In this document: piece after piece, positions 1,833 to 18,927 of the stretch | Numbering within the stretch: position 1 is the stretch's first letter | Layout: each line of letters begins with the position of its first letter | Source: Escherichia coli | GTDB lineage: Bacteria; Pseudomonadota; Gammaproteobacteria; Enterobacterales; Enterobacteriaceae | Reading direction: 5' to 3' (one strand) | DNA: 64,000 nucleotides | Assembly (NCBI RefSeq): GCF_003019035.1 | Contig: NZ_CP027447.1 | Position numbers and translations under genes: made by a program | Notes under the pieces: generated by a model | Told to the model about the DNA's origin: nothing | The model's input: the letters and a program-made list of their open reading frames with translations, nothing else | Database searches by the model: none

Positions 1833-1962
1833 GTTGCATTCTCCTCTGTGAATAATTCATCGTTTATCCTGCACATCCCGTATCCCCGGCTCTCTTAACG
1901 CGCTTTAAAATCCTTCGCGCCCTGTATTTGTGATGCTGTCTCCACCAGACAAGGAGACACAC
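1833..1962. promoter_or_regulatory. divergent intergenic region; 7-bp inverted repeat TGTCTCC(1937-1943)/GGAGACA(1953-1959) whose 3' arm contains the SD of the first late gene
   Basis: Inverted repeat seen directly; position corresponds to the lys late promoter of Mu-like phages. Confidence 0.3.
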
Positions 1963-2313
1963 ATGAAAAACCTGAAAAAATTCATTCCCCCTGTTAAAAA
2001 ACCTCGCCTCAGCGGCTGGCTGCTGACCTCAGTGCTGTTGCTGGGCACCATCGCTCTGGTCTCGCCACAGCAGCTGCCTGTTGTGATCTACAAGCTGGCA
2101 CTCATCACGCTGGCAGCAGTGCTGGGTTACTGGCTTGACCGTTCACTCTTCCCCAAAGCCCGTCCCGGTCAGTACCTGAAACATGAAGACAGGCTGATGG
2201 CTGAAGGGCGTTTCCCTGTGCAGACCGGCCTTCACCTTGTATTTTCTGCTGCGTTAATCCGCCGTGCACTGATTGTTGCAGCGGTCTGTCTGGCTGTGGC
2301 AACAGGACTGTGA
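1963..2313 (+). CDS. membrane protein with 2-3 predicted TM helices, putative holin (ORF-track start 1930 is GTG; ATG 1963 has SD AAGGAG)
   Basis: Hydrophobic segments in translation; directly upstream of and overlapping the endolysin gene. Confidence 0.5.
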   Translation: MKNLKKFIPPVKKPRLSGWLLTSVLLLGTIALVSPQQLPVVIYKLALITLAAVLGYWLDRSLFPKARPGQYLKHEDRLMAEGRFPVQTGLHLVFSAALIRRALIVAAVCLAVATGL

Positions 2314-8479: not shown

Positions 8480-8938
8480 ATGGCTTCCGATAACCTGGTC
8501 AGTATCACCATTAACGATAAATCCCTGCGCCGGAGCCTCCGTGCGCTGGATCTTGCTGCCACAGACCTGGAGCCCGCGATGCGCAAAATCGCCGGAACCC
8601 TGCTGGCGGAAACACAGTTTAACTTTCTTGATGAGGGGCGTCCGGGGTGGATGCCCTCGCTGGCAGCGGAAGAACGTGACGGGCAGACACTGCAGGATAC
8701 CGGGCGTCTGATGGGGTCAGTATCAACCGACCATGACGCCCGGCAGGCTGTTGTGGGGACCAACGTTGTTTACGGTGCCATTCACCAGTTCGGGGGTAAA
8801 ACGGGGCGTAATGAGTCTGTTGAACTTCCGGCCCGCCCGTTCCTGCCGGTGACGGGGGATGGAGAACTACAGCCTGAAGTGGTAATCCCCATCCTCGATA
8901 CCATTGTCCGCCATCTTGAATCAGCGGCCCGTCGCTGA
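8480..8938 (+). CDS. virion morphogenesis protein (Mu G-like), 152 aa
   Basis: Family resemblance; SD GAGAGGA. Confidence 0.6.
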   Translation: MASDNLVSITINDKSLRRSLRALDLAATDLEPAMRKIAGTLLAETQFNFLDEGRPGWMPSLAAEERDGQTLQDTGRLMGSVSTDHDARQAVVGTNVVYGAIHQFGGKTGRNESVELPARPFLPVTGDGELQPEVVIPILDTIVRHLESAARR

Positions 8939-9152
8939 GTTTTCTCTCTTCAGGCGGGTGATTTATCATTGCCAGCGAATGAGGGGCTGTATTACCTTTA
9001 TAAAGGCTTTACAGCCTCTGTTTTATAACCGCTTCCGGTTCACCGCATTGCTTTCCCTGTCCTTCTCCCCTGATGTTTTCTAAAGCAGATTAAAATCGCC
9101 GGGCCTGCATTTCTCACAAACTGTCTCCGACAACATAACGCGGGACAGCAAA
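8939..9152 (+). promoter_or_regulatory. 214-bp intergenic region inside the head operon with an imperfect palindrome centred on TTTATAAA; candidate late promoter (position of Mu PI)
   Basis: Long gap in an otherwise tightly packed operon; palindrome seen at ~8985-9020. Confidence 0.3.
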
Positions 9153-10268
9153 ATGTCAGCCATTCACATTTTTAAAGCCGGTACTCATACCGATATGCAC
9201 GGCAAAAAACTGCCGTTCACGCCAGACGATCTTGCCGCCTGCGTGAAAGCCTATGACCCGTCCGTCCATGAAGCACCACTCGTGATTGGTCATCCCAGAA
9301 CGGAAGACCCGGCGTGGGGCTGGGTGAAAGCCCTGTCGCTCAGCGGCGTCGATCTGATGGCAGAGCCTGCCCAGCTGGACCCGCAGTTTGCTGAGATGGT
9401 CACCGACGGACGATTCAAAAAAGTGTCCGCCTCTTTCTACCTCCCGGATTCACCGTCCAATCCGAAGCCCGGCGTGCTCTACCTGCGCCATGTGGGCTTT
9501 CTCGGGGCACAGCCACCTTCCGTCAAGGGGCTGAAACAGGTGTCCTTCAGTGAGCAGGAAGAAGGTGTGGTGGAGTTCGCCGACTGGCAGGCCATCACGA
9601 ATGCCTCCCTGTGGGGAAAGCTGCGCGATTTTCTGATCGCCCGCTTCAGTCTGGACGAGGCAGAAAAAGTCCTGCCGGAATGGCAGCTCAACAGTCTGCG
9701 CGAAGAGGCGTACCGCGACACACTGTCGCAGGATGCAGCAGGTGCCCAATTCAGTGAGACAGGCCCGGGGCCGTCTTCCGCAAGTAACGAGGAATCATCG
9801 ATGACAAAAGAAGAGATTGAAGCCCTTCAGGAGGAGAACCGCCGCCTGAAGCAGCAGGCTGCTGATCGCGATGCGCGTGATGCACAGGTCAGACAGGAGC
9901 AACTGCATAAGGACAATGTGGCCTTTGCAGAAAAACTGGTCGCAGAGGGCCGTCTGGCTCCCCGCGCCTCCTCCGTGGTGGTTGCCCTGCTGGATGCCGT
10001 CGCCGGTGGCGACAAGCCGGTGGAGTTTGCTGAGGGGGAAAGCCGCACACCGCTGGCCACCGCCTTTCGTTCATTGCTCTCCGACGGGGAGCCGGTGATG
10101 AATTTCGCCGAACAGGCCACAAAAGAGCGTGTCGGCGACACGGTGAAGGTGGATGTGGCGGAGTTTGCGGAAGCCGATCCTGAGCGTCTGGCCCTGCATC
10201 AGAAAGCAGTGGCCCTGTCCAAAAAAGAAGGCATCAGCTATGAGGCTGCTGTCGCACGCTGCCTGTAA
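9153..10268 (+). CDS. head maturation protease (Mu I-like) with C-terminal scaffold region
   Basis: Mu I-like N-terminal region; coiled-coil C-terminal half. Confidence 0.7.
   Translation: MSAIHIFKAGTHTDMHGKKLPFTPDDLAACVKAYDPSVHEAPLVIGHPRTEDPAWGWVKALSLSGVDLMAEPAQLDPQFAEMVTDGRFKKVSASFYLPDSPSNPKPGVLYLRHVGFLGAQPPSVKGLKQVSFSEQEEGVVEFADWQAITNASLWGKLRDFLIARFSLDEAEKVLPEWQLNSLREEAYRDTLSQDAAGAQFSETGPGPSSASNEESSMTKEEIEALQEENRRLKQQAADRDARDAQVRQEQLHKDNVAFAEKLVAEGRLAPRASSVVVALLDAVAGGDKPVEFAEGESRTPLATAFRSLLSDGEPVMNFAEQATKERVGDTVKVDVAEFAEADPERLALHQKAVALSKKEGISYEAAVARCL
9801..10268 (+). CDS. nested in-frame scaffold protein (Mu Z-like), internal ATG with SD GAGGAA
   Basis: In-frame ATG at 9801 preceded by GAGGAA at 7 nt; Mu makes Z from an internal start in I. 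Confidence 0.4.
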   Translation: MTKEEIEALQEENRRLKQQAADRDARDAQVRQEQLHKDNVAFAEKLVAEGRLAPRASSVVVALLDAVAGGDKPVEFAEGESRTPLATAFRSLLSDGEPVMNFAEQATKERVGDTVKVDVAEFAEADPERLALHQKAVALSKKEGISYEAAVARCL

Positions 10269-10282
10269 TTTAAGGAGAAATC

Positions 10283-11236
10283 ATGTCTGATTACTTAAAA
10301 GGTAAACGTGTCGTTGATCCGGTACTGACCAGTATCGCCCGTGGCTATAAAAATGCCGCATTCATCGGCGAACGTATTTTCCCCGTCGTGCTGACGGACA
10401 AGGAAGGCGTGCGTGTACCGACCTTCGGGAAAACCGCCTTTGTGGAATATGACACCGAGCGCGCCGTCGGGGCGGACAGCAATGTTCTGGTCCGTGAGAA
10501 AACCGGCACGCTTGATCTGGTGCTGGGTGAACACGATCTGGCAGCGCCGGTGGATTACCGCGAACAGGCGGAGTCCATGTTTAACGAGGAGAGCAAGGCC
10601 ATCCGTCGCGCCACGAATGGCGTGAACCTGCGCCGTGAACTTATCGCTGCCCGTCTGGCTCAGGATGAAAAGGTCTACCGTACCGGACACGTCAAAAAAC
10701 TGACGTCCGGCGACCGCTGGGCCGGTGGTAAGGGTGACCCCATCGGGGTGATTGAAGCCGGTATGGAAGCGGTCCGTACGGCCACAGGGCTGCGTCCTAA
10801 CCTGATGACCATGGGTGCCGGCGTGATGGCGCTGCTGAAGTTCCATCCAGCACTTCAGGCAGCCATCGGAGCCAACGAGCGTAAGCGCATCACCACGGAG
10901 ATCCTGCAGGACCTCTTTCAGATCGAAGAGATCGTCATCGGTGCTCCTGTTTCCCTGCCATCCATGAAAGCGGCAATGGATAAAAACAGCGTGCCGGCGG
11001 ATATCTGGGGAGACAACCTGATGCTGCACTATGTCGGCAAACCGCAGCCCGGGGCGGACAGCGCGGACGAGAACGAGCCGTCCTTCGGCTACACTCTGCG
11101 TCGTAAGGGGATGCCTGTTGCTGACAAATACGACGGAGCCGGTGGCAAGGTGAAGTACTGCCGTTATACCGATATCTACAAAGTCGCCGTGGTTGGTGGC
11201 GATGCCGGGTATCTCATCACCGGTATCAGTAAATAA
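10283..11236 (+). CDS. major head subunit (Mu T-like), 317 aa
   Basis: Size, strong SD AAGGAG, position after protease/scaffold. Confidence 0.8.
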   Translation: MSDYLKGKRVVDPVLTSIARGYKNAAFIGERIFPVVLTDKEGVRVPTFGKTAFVEYDTERAVGADSNVLVREKTGTLDLVLGEHDLAAPVDYREQAESMFNEESKAIRRATNGVNLRRELIAARLAQDEKVYRTGHVKKLTSGDRWAGGKGDPIGVIEAGMEAVRTATGLRPNLMTMGAGVMALLKFHPALQAAIGANERKRITTEILQDLFQIEEIVIGAPVSLPSMKAAMDKNSVPADIWGDNLMLHYVGKPQPGADSADENEPSFGYTLRRKGMPVADKYDGAGGKVKYCRYTDIYKVAVVGGDAGYLITGISK

Positions 11237-11245
11237 GGAGGCGTT

Positions 11246-11584
11246 ATGGGAACCACTCAGCAGGTCATTCTGATTACAACCGTAACGGCAGGGGCAGAAC
11301 TGGCACAGCAGCGTTTTGTCGGGGCAGATAATACCCCCTGTAAAGCCGGTGCCGCAGCGCTCGGGGTTGCCGATGTGGATGCTGTTACCGGCGACAGCAC
11401 GCCGGTGAGCGTTCTGGGCATTATTGCTGTTGAGGCCGGTGCTGCGGTCAGCCGTGGTGTGGCTGTTCAGTCAGATGCTCAGGCCAGAGCCGTGCCGCAG
11501 TCCGGCGACGGTAAATCCTGTGGTATTGCACTTGATGAAGCCGGGGGTGAAGGCGACGTCATTCGTATCCTGCGCGGGGTGTGA
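11246..11584 (+). CDS. small Gly/Ala/Val-rich head-associated protein, 112 aa
   Basis: SD AGGAGG; position after major head gene. Confidence 0.4.
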   Translation: MGTTQQVILITTVTAGAELAQQRFVGADNTPCKAGAAALGVADVDAVTGDSTPVSVLGIIAVEAGAAVSRGVAVQSDAQARAVPQSGDGKSCGIALDEAGGEGDVIRILRGV

Positions 11585-14969: not shown

Positions 14970-14976
14970 CATCACA

Positions 14977-14998
14977 GGGGCTCCGGCCCCTTCTTTTT
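14977..14998 (+). terminator. rho-independent terminator GGGGC-TCCG-GCCCC followed by TTCTTTTT
   Basis: GC stem plus T-tract read directly. Confidence 0.6.
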
Positions 14999-15066
14999 AA
15001 TCCCCTTTAATATCCGTCACGTCCACCGCCAGACATACTGCTCTGAATTTACAAAGGAGTATGATC

Positions 15067-15402
15067 ATGTCACAGACCCAGTCCGATACTTTTACGCTGT
15101 CTTATCCTTTCACCACTGCTGCAGGTACCAGAATTGAACAGATTGAACTGAAACGCCTGACAGTAAAAGACCTGAAGCAGGTGCGCAAAATCAACAAAGA
15201 CCCGACAGACTGGGACGAACCACTGATTGCCCGTAGCACCGGTATCCTCCCGGAAGACCTCGATAACATGGATCTTGCCGACTATATGGAGCTGCAGAAA
15301 CGATTTCAGAAAATCACTGGGCTGGGCAAGAGCGACAAAAACACTGATGCAGGCGCAGGGCCTGCTGGCGAGATGGTTCAGGTTTCAACCGGGGGAGATT
15401 GA
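15067..15402 (+). CDS. tail assembly chaperone (Mu gp41 position); SD AAGGAGT
   Basis: Position immediately upstream of tape measure. Confidence 0.55.
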   Translation: MSQTQSDTFTLSYPFTTAAGTRIEQIELKRLTVKDLKQVRKINKDPTDWDEPLIARSTGILPEDLDNMDLADYMELQKRFQKITGLGKSDKNTDAGAGPAGEMVQVSTGGD

Positions 15403-15577: not shown

Positions 15578-18043
15578 GTGGCCAGTGAATTTTCAGTCGG
15601 CGTCATTATTGGCGGCATTGTCGGGAGCAGCTTCCGCTCAGCCGTCAGTGGCACCCGACGCGCCCTTGATTCCCTTGGTGATACCTCCCGCCGTCTGCAG
15701 GAACGCCAGAATGCCTTAACCCGGGCAACAGAACGTTATGGTCAACTGGGTTCTTCCCGGATGCAGCATCTCAACAGCGAGTTGCTGCGGGTAAGCCGCA
15801 CCATGGAGCAAATTGAACGTCAGCAGCGCCGTCTGTCAGCAGTATCAGCCACCGGTGATGCGTTGAAGGCTAACCGCCTGGCGCTCTATGGTCAGGGTGC
15901 AGAAACCTATGCTATTGGCAGAACGCTGGGCGCACCGGTCATGGCCTCGGTTAAACAATATGCCTCGTTTGAATCACAGTTGCGGGATATCAGTGTCACA
16001 GGAGACCTGGATGCAAAACAGGAACGTGCAATTGGCCAGGCTATCAGACAGGCCTCGCTGAAGGTTAACCAACTGCAGGAGTCTCTGTTAGGGGGAGTCG
16101 GACAATTAGTTGCTGATGGTATGGCCCCCGAACGGGCAGCAACGTTTGCAGAGATGCTTGGAAAGACCGCTACAGCAACCAAAGCCGATATGACCGACCT
16201 TGCCAAAATGACTTATGCCTTCAGCGATGCACTCAGAATCACTGATGCGAAAGAACTTGAACAGGCGTTTGGTATTGCGGCAACAGGAGCCAAACTTGGG
16301 TCATTTGAGCTGAAGGATATGGCAAAAGCATTACCCGGTATGGCTAAAGCCTTCGCTGCTCGTGGTATTTATGGAAAAGATGCGATTACCCAGATTGTTG
16401 CCAGTCTGGAGGTCGGTAAAGGTAGTGGCTCTGCAGAGGAAGCGGTCACCAATATGTCCAACTGGCTGGCAGCAATGGGCCGCGGAGATACCATCCAGAA
16501 ATATGCTAAAGCCGGGGTGGATTACCAGGGGTCAATGCAGAATTACGTCGCTCAGGGTTTTTCGCAGTACGAAGCTTCACTGATGATTGCCAACCGTTTT
16601 ATCGACAGTAAAGGCAAAGCGTTCTTGCAGCAATGGAAAGCTGCAGGAGCAAGAGGCGATCAGGAAGGTCAGCAGAAACTCATGGAGTCATTTGGTCTGG
16701 CTGAGGTCTTTACCGATATTCAGACTGTCAACCATTTACTGTCAATGCGACAGGGCTGGGATAAATACCTTTCCAGTAAGCAGGAAATGAATGCTCCGGC
16801 TGCAATGTCTACCCTGGATAAGGATGCTGCAAAGCAGAATGATACGCTTGAAGGTCGCTGGCGCAGAATGCAGATCGGCTTTAATGATTCTGCTATCAGC
16901 ATCGGGCAATCCTTGCGTCCGGCTTTGCTCCAGTTGGGTGAAACATTTATTCCTTTAATGGACAGCGTCGGCAAATGGATAGCGGCAAATCCGCAGCTCG
17001 TCAGCAGCACCATAAAGGTTGTGGGCGCATTACTCGCTTTCAGGATGGCCACTATCGGTCTCAAGTTTGGGCTGAATCTCCTTATTTCCCCCTTTGTAAG
17101 CGTCTGGAAAAATGCTGTTTTACTTCGGGCCAACTGGCTTCGTCTGATGCTCGCACTGGGGGAAGGCGGTAAACTCCGCTGGCTGGTGACAGGCTTTGGT
17201 GCCGTCGCCAGAGGAGCCAGAACACTGGGGGGTGTGCTCTCAGGGGGGCTGGTTCGCGGAATTATGAGCGCCGGGCGTGCCGTTCTCTGGATTGGCCGGG
17301 CGCTGATGATGAATCCCATCGGTCTCGCTATCACCGCCGTCGCGGCAGCAGCTTACCTTATCTACCGCAACTGGGGCGCGGTCAGTAGCTGGTTTAAACA
17401 GCGCTGGGCTGACATTCAGGAAGCCTTTAACGGCGGTATCGCGGGAATTGGTAAACTGCTGGTTAACTGGTCTCCGGCAGGTCTGCTTTATAAAGCCTTT
17501 GCGGCTGCGCTGAAATATCTCGGCGTTGATTTGCCGGCGAAATTCACCGACTTCGGTGGTCATCTTATTGACGGGCTGATAAATGGCATCAGAAACAAAT
17601 GGGAGTCACTGAAAACCAGCATAACCGGAATGGGTGACAGCATCAGTGACTGGTTCAGCGAAAAGCTGGGCATCCATTCACCGAGTCGCGTGTTTATAGG
17701 CTTTGGTGACAATATCGCGCAGGGTGCCGCCATTGGCCTGCAACGGACCACTCCGCTTGCTGCACTGGCCGGGCAGCGCCTGGCCGCTGAAATGACACCG
17801 GATGTTCCCCGTATCCCGTCGCCGGAAATCATGGCTGCCGGATATTCAGGCCGTGGCGCAACGGCAACCGGCGGTGGAGCGTCTGGCGGTATCCAGGTCA
17901 GCTTTAATCCTCAGTTTTTCCTCAATGGTAAGGAAACCGCAGCGCCTGCCGGGCTGACTGGTGCCCTGAATATGAGCCTGCATGAGCTGGAAAAAATGCT
18001 GGAGCGTCTGCTGGCTCAGAAACAACGTAAGGAGTACAGCTGA
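15578..18043 (+). CDS. tail tape measure protein, 821 aa (GTG start)
   Basis: Length, Ala/Gly-rich repetitive sequence, position. Confidence 0.8.
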   Translation: MASEFSVGVIIGGIVGSSFRSAVSGTRRALDSLGDTSRRLQERQNALTRATERYGQLGSSRMQHLNSELLRVSRTMEQIERQQRRLSAVSATGDALKANRLALYGQGAETYAIGRTLGAPVMASVKQYASFESQLRDISVTGDLDAKQERAIGQAIRQASLKVNQLQESLLGGVGQLVADGMAPERAATFAEMLGKTATATKADMTDLAKMTYAFSDALRITDAKELEQAFGIAATGAKLGSFELKDMAKALPGMAKAFAARGIYGKDAITQIVASLEVGKGSGSAEEAVTNMSNWLAAMGRGDTIQKYAKAGVDYQGSMQNYVAQGFSQYEASLMIANRFIDSKGKAFLQQWKAAGARGDQEGQQKLMESFGLAEVFTDIQTVNHLLSMRQGWDKYLSSKQEMNAPAAMSTLDKDAAKQNDTLEGRWRRMQIGFNDSAISIGQSLRPALLQLGETFIPLMDSVGKWIAANPQLVSSTIKVVGALLAFRMATIGLKFGLNLLISPFVSVWKNAVLLRANWLRLMLALGEGGKLRWLVTGFGAVARGARTLGGVLSGGLVRGIMSAGRAVLWIGRALMMNPIGLAITAVAAAAYLIYRNWGAVSSWFKQRWADIQEAFNGGIAGIGKLLVNWSPAGLLYKAFAAALKYLGVDLPAKFTDFGGHLIDGLINGIRNKWESLKTSITGMGDSISDWFSEKLGIHSPSRVFIGFGDNIAQGAAIGLQRTTPLAALAGQRLAAEMTPDVPRIPSPEIMAAGYSGRGATATGGGASGGIQVSFNPQFFLNGKETAAPAGLTGALNMSLHELEKMLERLLAQKQRKEYS

Positions 18044-18927
18044 TGTTTGCCGTACTGGGTGATATTGAGTTTGAACTGATTACCTACTGGGACGGCTTCG
18101 AGGCCACGTTTGGCGTCGATTATGCGGAGCATGCCCGCATCGAGGGTAAACCCGGCCTGCAGTTCGTCGGCGACAGGCTGGACGAAATCCAGATAAGCCT
18201 GGTCTTCCATCAGCATTATTGTGTGCCCGACGTGGAGCTGGCGAGAGTGCGAACAGCCATGAAGGCCCATCAGGCACTGGCGCTGGTCTTCGGCAACGGT
18301 GACTATCGCGGCTGGTTCGTGATTACCGATGTGACCGCAACCAGCGAGCAGACAGACAGCACCGGTAACGTGCTGGCTGTCAGTGCCACCGTGTCTCTCC
18401 GGGAATACACCGGTGACCCGAAAAATCCTCTGCAACCGCCGGCAATACGCAGGCAGGTTCCCGGTGCCGGGGCCGTATCTGGTGCTGTTCCATCGCCTTC
18501 CGGGGTGGCGCAGTTCGTCCGTAACGGCGTCAACTATGCGAAACAGGCGCAGTCTGTACTCCAGACCACCATCAGTGCCGTTCGGGTGGCACAGAAAATG
18601 AAGGGTAACCCTGTTGTCGCGCTGACCCGTGTACCGGGACTGATGAGCGGACTGGGTAATATATCCGTGGCTCTGGGGAAAAGTGTTCCGGCGTTTAATG
18701 CACTCTCTGAATCCATGCCCGATGCCATCAGTCTGGCCAGAACAGCCAGTGAGGCAGCCACGTATGTACAGCAGGCGCAGTCGGCGCTGAGTGGTGTGGA
18801 CAAAAGAAATATTGCAGGTGCTCTGGATACCGTTTCCGGGCAGCTTAACGCCGCCGGCACAGCATTCAACCGCATGTCTCCGGGATTAAGTGCAATGGCC
18901 GCCAGAATACTGACGAGGAGTGTGTGA
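18043..18927 (+). CDS. tail protein (Mu N / DNA-circulation-like)
   Basis: Order after tape measure; family resemblance from memory. Confidence 0.5.
   Translation: MFAVLGDIEFELITYWDGFEATFGVDYAEHARIEGKPGLQFVGDRLDEIQISLVFHQHYCVPDVELARVRTAMKAHQALALVFGNGDYRGWFVITDVTATSEQTDSTGNVLAVSATVSLREYTGDPKNPLQPPAIRRQVPGAGAVSGAVPSPSGVAQFVRNGVNYAKQAQSVLQTTISAVRVAQKMKGNPVVALTRVPGLMSGLGNISVALGKSVPAFNALSESMPDAISLARTASEAATYVQQAQSALSGVDKRNIAGALDTVSGQLNAAGTAFNRMSPGLSAMAARILTRSV

Follow-up and report, generated by a model that had tools for sequence, protein, structure and literature searches.

What role does an inverted repeat play when it sits directly in front of a phage lysis gene and reaches into the promoter of that gene? 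The question arises in a 64,000-nucleotide (nt) stretch of Escherichia coli DNA (RefSeq assembly GCF_003019035.1, contig NZ_CP027447.1; hereafter the window), which carries a BcepMu-like (Bcepmuvirus-type) transposable prophage. The 3′ arm of the repeat contains the Shine-Dalgarno (SD) sequence of a holin gene, and its 5′ arm coincides with the end of a predicted late promoter, P1. We give about even chances to the reading that the repeat is an anti-SD embedded in the promoter, which would silence transcripts that read through from upstream. Directly shown are the features of the sequence, their conservation, the statistical excess of complementarity between promoter and start region, and a computed difference in accessibility; the transcription start, the existence of read-through RNA and the effect on translation are inferred. 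The elements of the locus are as follows.

1894–1909, + strand: predicted Mor-type activator dyad of P1, CTTAA-CGCGCT-TTAAA, with 5-bp inverted repeats and a G/C-rich 6-bp spacer
1927–1967, + strand: extended hairpin predicted in promoter-crossing RNA, with two bulges, covering SD and AUG
1932–1937, + strand: predicted −10 hexamer GATGCT of P1, 22 nt after the dyad, without a −35 hexamer
1937–1943, + strand: 5′ arm TGTCTCC, made up of the final −10 base and the 6-nt discriminator (1938–1943), with a proposed anti-SD role
1944–1945, + strand: predicted transcription start of the Mor-dependent late transcript, from Mu Pm/Plys geometry, within the loop 1944–1952
1953–1959, + strand: 3′ arm GGAGACA, containing the holin SD GGAG
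1963–2313, + strand: holin gene, 116 amino acids, Pfam PF13272 Holin_2-3 (E = 1.1e-40), homolog of BcepMu gp21

The arms of the repeat are 100% complementary and enclose a 9-nt loop (ACCAGACAA, 1944–1952), with the holin ATG following at 1963–1965; the arm coordinates, loop length and ATG position in a first-pass annotation of this DNA agree exactly with the sequence. The same annotation had assigned the 3′ arm as the holin SD, and this is supported. ATG1963 is the 'putative holin' start in the RefSeq annotation of a 99% identical prophage. RNA folding, which it had suggested as a check, yields a stable stem that grows to 1927–1967 and buries both SD and AUG. The segment 1900–1990 folds at −19.2 kcal/mol (z = −3.07; none of 200 shuffles does as well), and the same hairpin in a tighter 62-nt context reaches −14.2 kcal/mol (z = −1.68). 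Repeats of this kind are commonplace: the window contains 81 perfect 7-bp inverted repeats with loops of 3–12 nt, against 41 ± 10 in mononucleotide shuffles (~2-fold), so the case for the holin repeat must rest on its position, context and conservation. An Rfam scan of 1700–2200 gave no relevant family (best E = 0.8, unrelated).

The position of the repeat takes its meaning from the promoter. The holin is the first gene of a lysis/packaging operon that continues with an SLT transglycosylase, spanin-like genes and terminase, in the gene order of BcepMu gp21–gp28. The gene upstream of it (1089–1832) lies on the opposite strand, so the operon promoter must sit in the 130-bp gap between the two. 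A scan of 1700–2100 for sigma-70 promoters with both −35 and −10 hexamers, combined with a terminator scan, found nothing. Mor- and C-dependent promoters of phage Mu have a 16-bp dyad (5-bp repeats around a G/C-rich 6-bp spacer) centred at −43.5 and a −10 hexamer, with no −35 (PMC4390567, PMC2582627). The Mor site of Mu Pm spans −51 to −36, as fixed by the primer table in PMC4390567; in the Mu genome we read this site as AGTAA-AGCCGG-TTAAT, followed after 22 nt by the hexamer TATCCT at −13 to −8. P1 displays the corresponding features, namely a 16-bp dyad, a −10 hexamer without −35, and an activator of the family in the phage. The last is a Mor transcription activator family protein (WP_001281698.1), annotated by RefSeq in the 99% identical prophage at the end of the leftward early operon; it is the single Mor-family activator annotated in the arm examined, and its gene lies outside the 64-kb window. 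BcepMu gp01 is likewise annotated as a Mor-family activator. We predict that P1 is a Mor/C-type activator-dependent late promoter with its +1 at 1944/1945, 7–8 nt after the hexamer, where exact Mu Pm geometry points to 1945 and purine preference to A1944.

Orthologs bear on this assignment. In a sample of 120 related loci from viral and genome collections, which reduce to about 65 distinct sequences (single loci are cited below by L numbers), a constant pattern appears: [C/T/A]TAA-N6-TTAA-aatcc is followed by 18 nt without conservation, then by the hexamer nAnnnT, a block of 6 nt and usually a purine. The dyad, the fixed spacing and the hexamer are kept in every ortholog, and the 18 nt downstream of TTAAaatcc vary freely. 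Among 44 distinct aligned orthologs, the hexamer always has A at position 2 and T at position 6. T1937 is invariant though its pairing partner may be A, G, C or T, and A1933 is invariant though it is bulged in the fold; pairing leaves both unexplained, and both fit a −10 hexamer. In the same alignment GGA of the 3′ arm is invariant and GGAGAC is conserved at 90% or above. The 5′ arm is followed by a purine in most orthologs and by CA in one subgroup. The motif TAA-N6-TTAA-N24-ANNCTG occurs three times in the window (1896, 9081 and 14998), always on the + strand, where 0 are expected. Each copy precedes one operon (lysis/packaging, head and tail), and the second and third follow terminator-like hairpins. 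TAAAAT at 1906–1911 was considered as an alternative −10 hexamer and set aside: its counterpart reads TAAAAG or TAATAG in L062, L064, L105, L109 and L126, and it is the right half of the Mor-type dyad.

The 5′ arm, consisting of the −10 hexamer end and the discriminator, lies upstream of the predicted +1 and is therefore expected to be absent from late messenger RNA (mRNA). Because the discriminator is placed just upstream of the start, the late transcript would lack the anti-SD and have a free SD; the predicted mRNA, 5′-ACCAGACAAGGAGACACACAUG..., has a 19-nt leader and is essentially unstructured (−0.5 kcal/mol).

Promoter-crossing RNA behaves differently in silico. All 66 distinct P1 orthologs have the SD paired (at least 3 of its 4 bases) in their minimum-energy fold, with a mean z of −2.86, and most of them also pair the AUG. 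The other two promoters of the window repeat the arrangement with sequences unlike P1, each pairing its own discriminator or hexamer with its own SD and AUG. All 7 distinct variants of P2 and all 21 of P3 show this own-SD/AUG pairing, and they include one whose leader runs to ~50 nt.

9079–9155, + strand: P2 with fold-back; dyad 9079–9094, −10 hexamer CAAACT 9117–9122, discriminator GTCTCC 9123–9128
9121–9128, + strand: P2 5′ arm CTGTCTCC, with the predicted +1 at G9129
9142–9148, + strand: P2 3′ arm and SD GGGACAG; ATG at 9153, of a homolog of the Mu I / BcepMu gp32 protease (head protease/scaffold)
8921–8938 and 9004–9017: terminator-like hairpins upstream of P2
14996–15069, + strand: P3 with fold-back; dyad 14996–15011, −10 hexamer CATACT 15034–15039, discriminator GCTCTG 15040–15045
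15056–15059, + strand: P3 SD GGAG, with the 3′ arm AGTATG at 15058–15063; predicted +1 A15046, ATG at 15067 of a tail gene
14976–14991: terminator-like hairpin upstream of P3

We then computed the cost of opening the start region, from the SD to the first codons after the AUG. At P1 this cost is 9.7–10.4 kcal/mol in read-through RNA versus 4.6 kcal/mol in RNA from 1944; at P2 it is 11.6–13.1 versus 5.7 kcal/mol, and at P3 8.4–8.6 versus 4.3 kcal/mol, in both cases relative to RNA from the predicted +1. The computed difference between read-through and own transcript thus amounts to 4–7 kcal/mol at all three promoters.

Mu itself provides a comparison in which the starts are known. For its late promoters we used the published −10 alignment, with the +1 seven nt after the hexamer and starts placed by S1 nuclease mapping. 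At Pm, Plys and PI the −10/discriminator region pairs with the first downstream gene at its SD region or start codon, forming helices of 9–10 bp in promoter-spanning RNA. The arms are CCTGTGATGA and TCATCATGGG at Pm (9211–9256 of AF083977, our locus L236), CTGCCATCA and TGATGGCGG at Plys (10444–10488), and ACTGCTC and GAGCAG at PI (18018–18064). In all three the 5′ arm is upstream of the published start and the 3′ arm is at the SD or start codon. The comparison with Plys that the first-pass annotation had suggested is thus informative, since this promoter has the same layout, with a discriminator complementary to the lys start region. In the literature that we searched, to which older Mu papers are largely external, there is no description of such complementarity between promoter and start region for Mu or BcepMu.

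To score the complementarity uniformly, we used a pre-set duplex test that pairs the hexamer plus 7 nt with the sequence from there to ATG+8. Seven of eight promoter units reach −10.5 to −15.2 kcal/mol, with a combined p of 4e-8 against shuffles and 1.4e-6 against random 13-mers. In 72 internal genes of Mu and the window, taken as controls, p-values are uniform and 5 of 72 are at or below −10.5 kcal/mol. Treated as a validation set of their own, the four Mu promoters give a Fisher combination of roughly 4e-5 (shuffles) to 3e-3 (random 13-mers).

Further lineages differ in the sequence of the arms or in the place of the 5′ arm. In Lonsdalea the discriminator has changed to GTGTGC, and a new GTCTCC in the spacer pairs with the SD. 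Symbiopectobacterium has a different upstream region with the arms CCACCTC/GAGGTGG (z = −3.75). At BcepMu P1 the arms CCCGTA/TACGGG surround a nested second hairpin (z = −2.78), and a Bordetella relative has CCTCCGG/CCGGAGG (z = −2.84); in both the anti-SD is in the spacer. BcepMu P3 shows the complementarity GTGCTC/GAGCAC. Overall, the 5′ arm may lie in the discriminator or anywhere in the spacer, and the 3′ arm is always at the SD/AUG whatever the leader length (~19–50 nt). The simplest reading of a mobile 5′ arm and a 3′ arm that tracks the SD/AUG is an RNA structure present only in promoter-crossing transcripts.

Within the P1 orthologs, most arm changes remain compatible with wobble pairing: C becomes U in the 5′ arm and A becomes G in the 3′ arm. 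The SD of L103 reads GGAA instead of GGAG, which replaces a U.G pair by U-A. As a test of bias toward G.U-compatible changes, substitutions in the 5′ arm comprise 6 C-to-T and 2 T-to-C, for which a binomial estimate of ~0.07 is suggestive at most. When 5′ and 3′ halves are swapped between lineages, which are not independent of one another, cognate pairs have a weak advantage (−15.7 versus −15.0 kcal/mol; p = 0.0016 by permutation), and it is seldom the cognate partner that ranks first. Taken from sequence comparison, the complementarity between promoter and start region looks selected in this phage group. The first-pass annotation had proposed that the hairpin could gate translation of the lysis cassette, a reading to be refuted by a transcription start downstream of 1943 together with stem mutations that have no effect. 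The first half of this idea, an SD-sequestering complementarity, is supported by the comparative data. The second half, gating of the late mRNA, is probably wrong in its details: the 5′ arm is upstream of the predicted +1, and promoter anatomy predicts a start downstream of 1943.

Several observations weigh against a promoter-embedded anti-SD. The predicted +1 of P1 rests on analogy with Mu geometry. Covariation among the 44 distinct P1 orthologs is nil (88.9% of cells paired versus 89.1% after shuffling, with one compensatory pair), and co-variation in the outer arms is weak; the columns of the core helix are nearly invariant, so that the lack of formal covariation neither supports nor refutes pairing. 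Sense duplexes are more stable than antisense ones by a mean of −0.8 kcal/mol, a difference that is not significant (p = 0.10), so that the test does not establish an RNA-level role in preference to a DNA-level one. Neither Mu Pmom nor BcepMu P2 conforms to the pattern. The first genes at P2, P3 and Mu PI are harmless head or tail genes that stand behind terminators, where the benefit of insulation is unclear, and a fold-back on the first gene alone would leave the downstream genes unsilenced.

How do other explanations compare? The complementarity might have no function, if a pyrimidine-rich discriminator (...CTCC) and an SD (GGAG...) were each conserved for separate reasons, with a match that goes back to a single origin and has since been passed on. 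This account is favored by the frequency of 7-bp inverted repeats, by the ability of every CTCC to pair with every strong SD, and by the lack of significant covariation in the core helix of the orthologs. It does not readily explain why unrelated arms share the arrangement, as in GCCATC/GATGGC at Mu Plys, TGATGA/TCATCA at Mu Pm and CCACCTC/GAGGTGG in L121, together with the Bordetella and BcepMu P3 pairs given above, or why control genes of the same geometry show no excess. Moreover, conservation of GGAGAC reaches two bases past the SD into an otherwise variable SD-to-ATG spacer, and the SD change in L103 gives U-A in place of U.G. We consider the absence of function unlikely. We would rate equally low a role at the DNA level, in which a repeat flanking the start affects promoter opening or escape (for example, through a non-template hairpin in the scrunched bubble) or binds a symmetric protein such as a repressor. 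In its favor, the feature is confined to promoters of the Mor/C type, open-complex formation and promoter escape are steps on which C acts, the inverted repeats of BcepMu P1 and P2 flank the −10 hexamer itself, and the sense/antisense asymmetry falls short of significance. However, the 5′ arm is the discriminator in Enterobacterales, and Lonsdalea, BcepMu and Bordetella have it in the spacer, at roughly −30 to −15, where the DNA of an open complex is not melted; this counts against such a role. The spacing between arms, from 9 to >30 nt, is a poor fit to a dimeric DNA-binding protein, and a 3′ arm that follows the SD/AUG across leaders of ~19–50 nt points to translation rather than transcription.

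The whole hairpin would instead belong to the 5′ untranslated region of the late mRNA if transcription started upstream of 1927, for instance from TAAAAT 1906–1911, and it might then gate or tune holin translation, perhaps with a factor that opens it, or stabilize the mRNA. The hairpin is stable and conserved, TAAAAT is a widely conserved 5/6 match to the −10 consensus, and SD hairpins exist in authentic mRNAs such as that of IS200 tnpA. Yet the equivalent of TAAAAT loses its essential final T in the five loci named above, and as a −10 element this right half of the dyad would set the dyad at about −16. The invariant T1937 and A1933 fit a −10 hexamer and not pairing, and the Mu equivalents with mapped starts have their 5′ arms upstream of +1; a hairpin within the late leader is quite improbable in our estimate. 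The first-pass annotation had also offered TGTCTCC-N9-GGAGACA as a binding site for a late-gene activator, and here we part from it. The perfect 7-bp dyad near the first late gene is the attraction of this idea, but the repeat lies 4–26 nt before the ATG, ending 4 bp from it, so that a start downstream of it would fall inside the gene. A better, Mor-format dyad (1894–1909) is available ~40 bp upstream, correctly spaced and recurring at P2 and P3, and the repeat itself does not recur in that form. The arm spacing is not conserved (9–14 nt), and in some lineages the 5′ arm has moved. We regard an activator site here as very improbable.

With the promoter-embedded anti-SD as the preferred reading, the repeat would be the overlap of the P1 core (dyad, −10, discriminator and start) with the holin translation initiation region, and the P1 discriminator would double as the anti-SD. 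A genuine late transcript would start in the loop without the anti-SD and leave the SD free. RNA entering from upstream, either from the immunity/accessory-gene side in the lysogen or from a preceding operon, would carry both arms and form the 1927–1967 hairpin, burying SD and AUG. The outcome would be an IS10-like 'fold-back' translational insulator, with holin made only when the Mor-family activator fires P1. The surroundings of P1 in the window contain no detected terminator-like site on the + strand between 681 and 7492, an interval that spans a + strand open reading frame (709–1113) and P1. In BcepMu, the repressor-side genes gp17–20 run into the holin promoter without a gap, and the gp20 stop codon lies inside the dyad. 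The rationale for insulation is strongest for the holin and weaker for the head and tail promoters.

In IS10, a sequence upstream of the element's own start is reportedly complementary to the translation start region. Transcripts from outside IS10 carry both arms and are translationally silent, whereas its own transcript starts inside the structure and escapes. Given the inferred +1, P1 has the same layout, with the 5′ arm before the start and the 3′ arm on the SD, and here too only externally entering transcripts would hold both arms. In contrast to the IS10 transposase, the protected gene is a phage holin, along with other first genes of late operons, and the 5′ arm, known here from sequence, forms part of an activator-dependent promoter, in its −10/discriminator or its spacer. 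RNA structures at the start region also control translation of late and lysis genes in Mu com-mom and in the lambda S 'sdi' dual start. Those structures are inside the real mRNA, where they are opened by the Com protein or set the ratio of two start codons; unlike them, the present arrangement implies no factor, and its upstream ATG1933 is not conserved in frame. The 'fold-back inhibition' of external promoters in IS10/Tn10 is attributed in PMC13181058 to Davis, Simons and Kleckner (1985). In IS200, a stem-loop in the tnpA 5′ untranslated region sequesters the SD and limits ribosome binding, and an upstream terminator acts against impinging transcription (PMC4513863). The short cis hairpin that buries the SD and the combination of terminator and SD hairpin are common to IS200 and the phage promoters; in IS200 both arms are in the authentic mRNA and repression is constitutive, whereas the 5′ arm here is predicted to lie outside it.

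The regulatory setting resembles that of Mu in several respects. In both phages the early operon ends with a Mor-family activator gene, and the promoters have dyads with 5-bp (Mor) or 4-bp (C) half-sites around a 6-bp spacer, a −10 without −35, and a short leader (24 nt from start to ATG at Mu Plys, 19 nt predicted at P1). The half-sites are TTAA/TTAA in this phage, AGTAA/TTAAT in Mu Pm and TTAT/ATAA in Mu late promoters. Mu uses a two-step cascade of Mor and then C, whereas one Mor-family gene is annotated in the prophage arm examined here, and the operon here begins with a holin, which Mu lacks.

Individual Mu and BcepMu promoters show other structures. At Mu Pmom (L236, 35740–35782), the com SD and AUG are in the loop of a helix, GCGAAUUGAU/AUCAAUUCGC, that joins the start-site region with com codons 2–5, unlike the other Mu promoters. 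In BcepMu (NC_005882, our L238), an inverted repeat at 11515–11536, ATGCCGTC-caagat-GACGGCAT, flanks a −10 hexamer and places it in a hairpin loop; at 18842–18860, CGCCC-gatgat-GGGCG again has the hexamer in the loop. Within 18812–18866 of the same genome a Mor-type promoter is predicted whose −10 hexamer, GATGAT, contains the annotated gp32 start (ATG 18850), and an in-frame ATG at 18862 directly follows the discriminator. This suggests that the gp32 start is mis-set and that the mRNA is possibly leaderless.

Two further codons, GTG1930 and ATG1933 (the latter within the −10 hexamer), are in frame with the holin and would add 10–11 codons. A dual-start holin of the lambda S105/S107 type was considered and rejected: ATG1933 has no SD, and the distance from hexamer to ATG varies from 31 to 37 nt among orthologs, so an upstream in-frame start is not conserved. 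ATG1933/GTG1930 is probably not a dual start. Downstream, at 2316–2390 of the window, the SLT endolysin starts with a hydrophobic stretch, MNWPQITLIILFAFGLGVTAIRHG, which suggests a signal-anchor (SAR-type) endolysin; if so, holin-independent release would matter for leak control. Two sampled loci carry unexpected labels. L108 (QPLR01000374.1, 'Halobellus sp.', 521 bp), a contig of an archaeal assembly, encodes a holin 95% identical to the enterobacterial one and is most likely contamination. The Klebsiella phage KP12 clone KP12_2 record (L003, OM835952.1) is placed in Vequintavirinae, and its sequence is that of a BcepMu-like element sharing the lysis cassette and promoter; the label probably reflects a co-assembled prophage or a misclassification.

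What would such an arrangement mean for the phage and its host? The prophage region is 95.7% identical to Escherichia phage PhiKM and occurs in 635 of 5,426 complete E. coli genomes. Because expression of the holin is lethal to the cell, a prophage carried by ~12% of these genomes must keep it silent, and transcription of the neighboring immunity/accessory genes points at it. An anti-SD inside the promoter would give all-or-none control, with translation only from activator-initiated RNA. It is conceivable, at somewhat less than even chances, that Mor/C-activated promoters of transposable phages carry, as a rule, an untranscribed anti-SD or anti-start sequence in the −10/discriminator or spacer; Mu Pm, Plys and PI would be examples, as would the three late promoters of BcepMu-like phages. 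If this rule is true, each operon would be translationally insulated from transcription not begun at its own promoter, which would add to the terminators a second safeguard of the early-middle-late cascade and of lysogen survival. Should Mu Pm, Plys and PI indeed follow the pattern, a textbook regulatory cascade would gain an unrecognized layer, and the arrangement would also offer a compact rule for designing constructs that express toxic genes without leakage.

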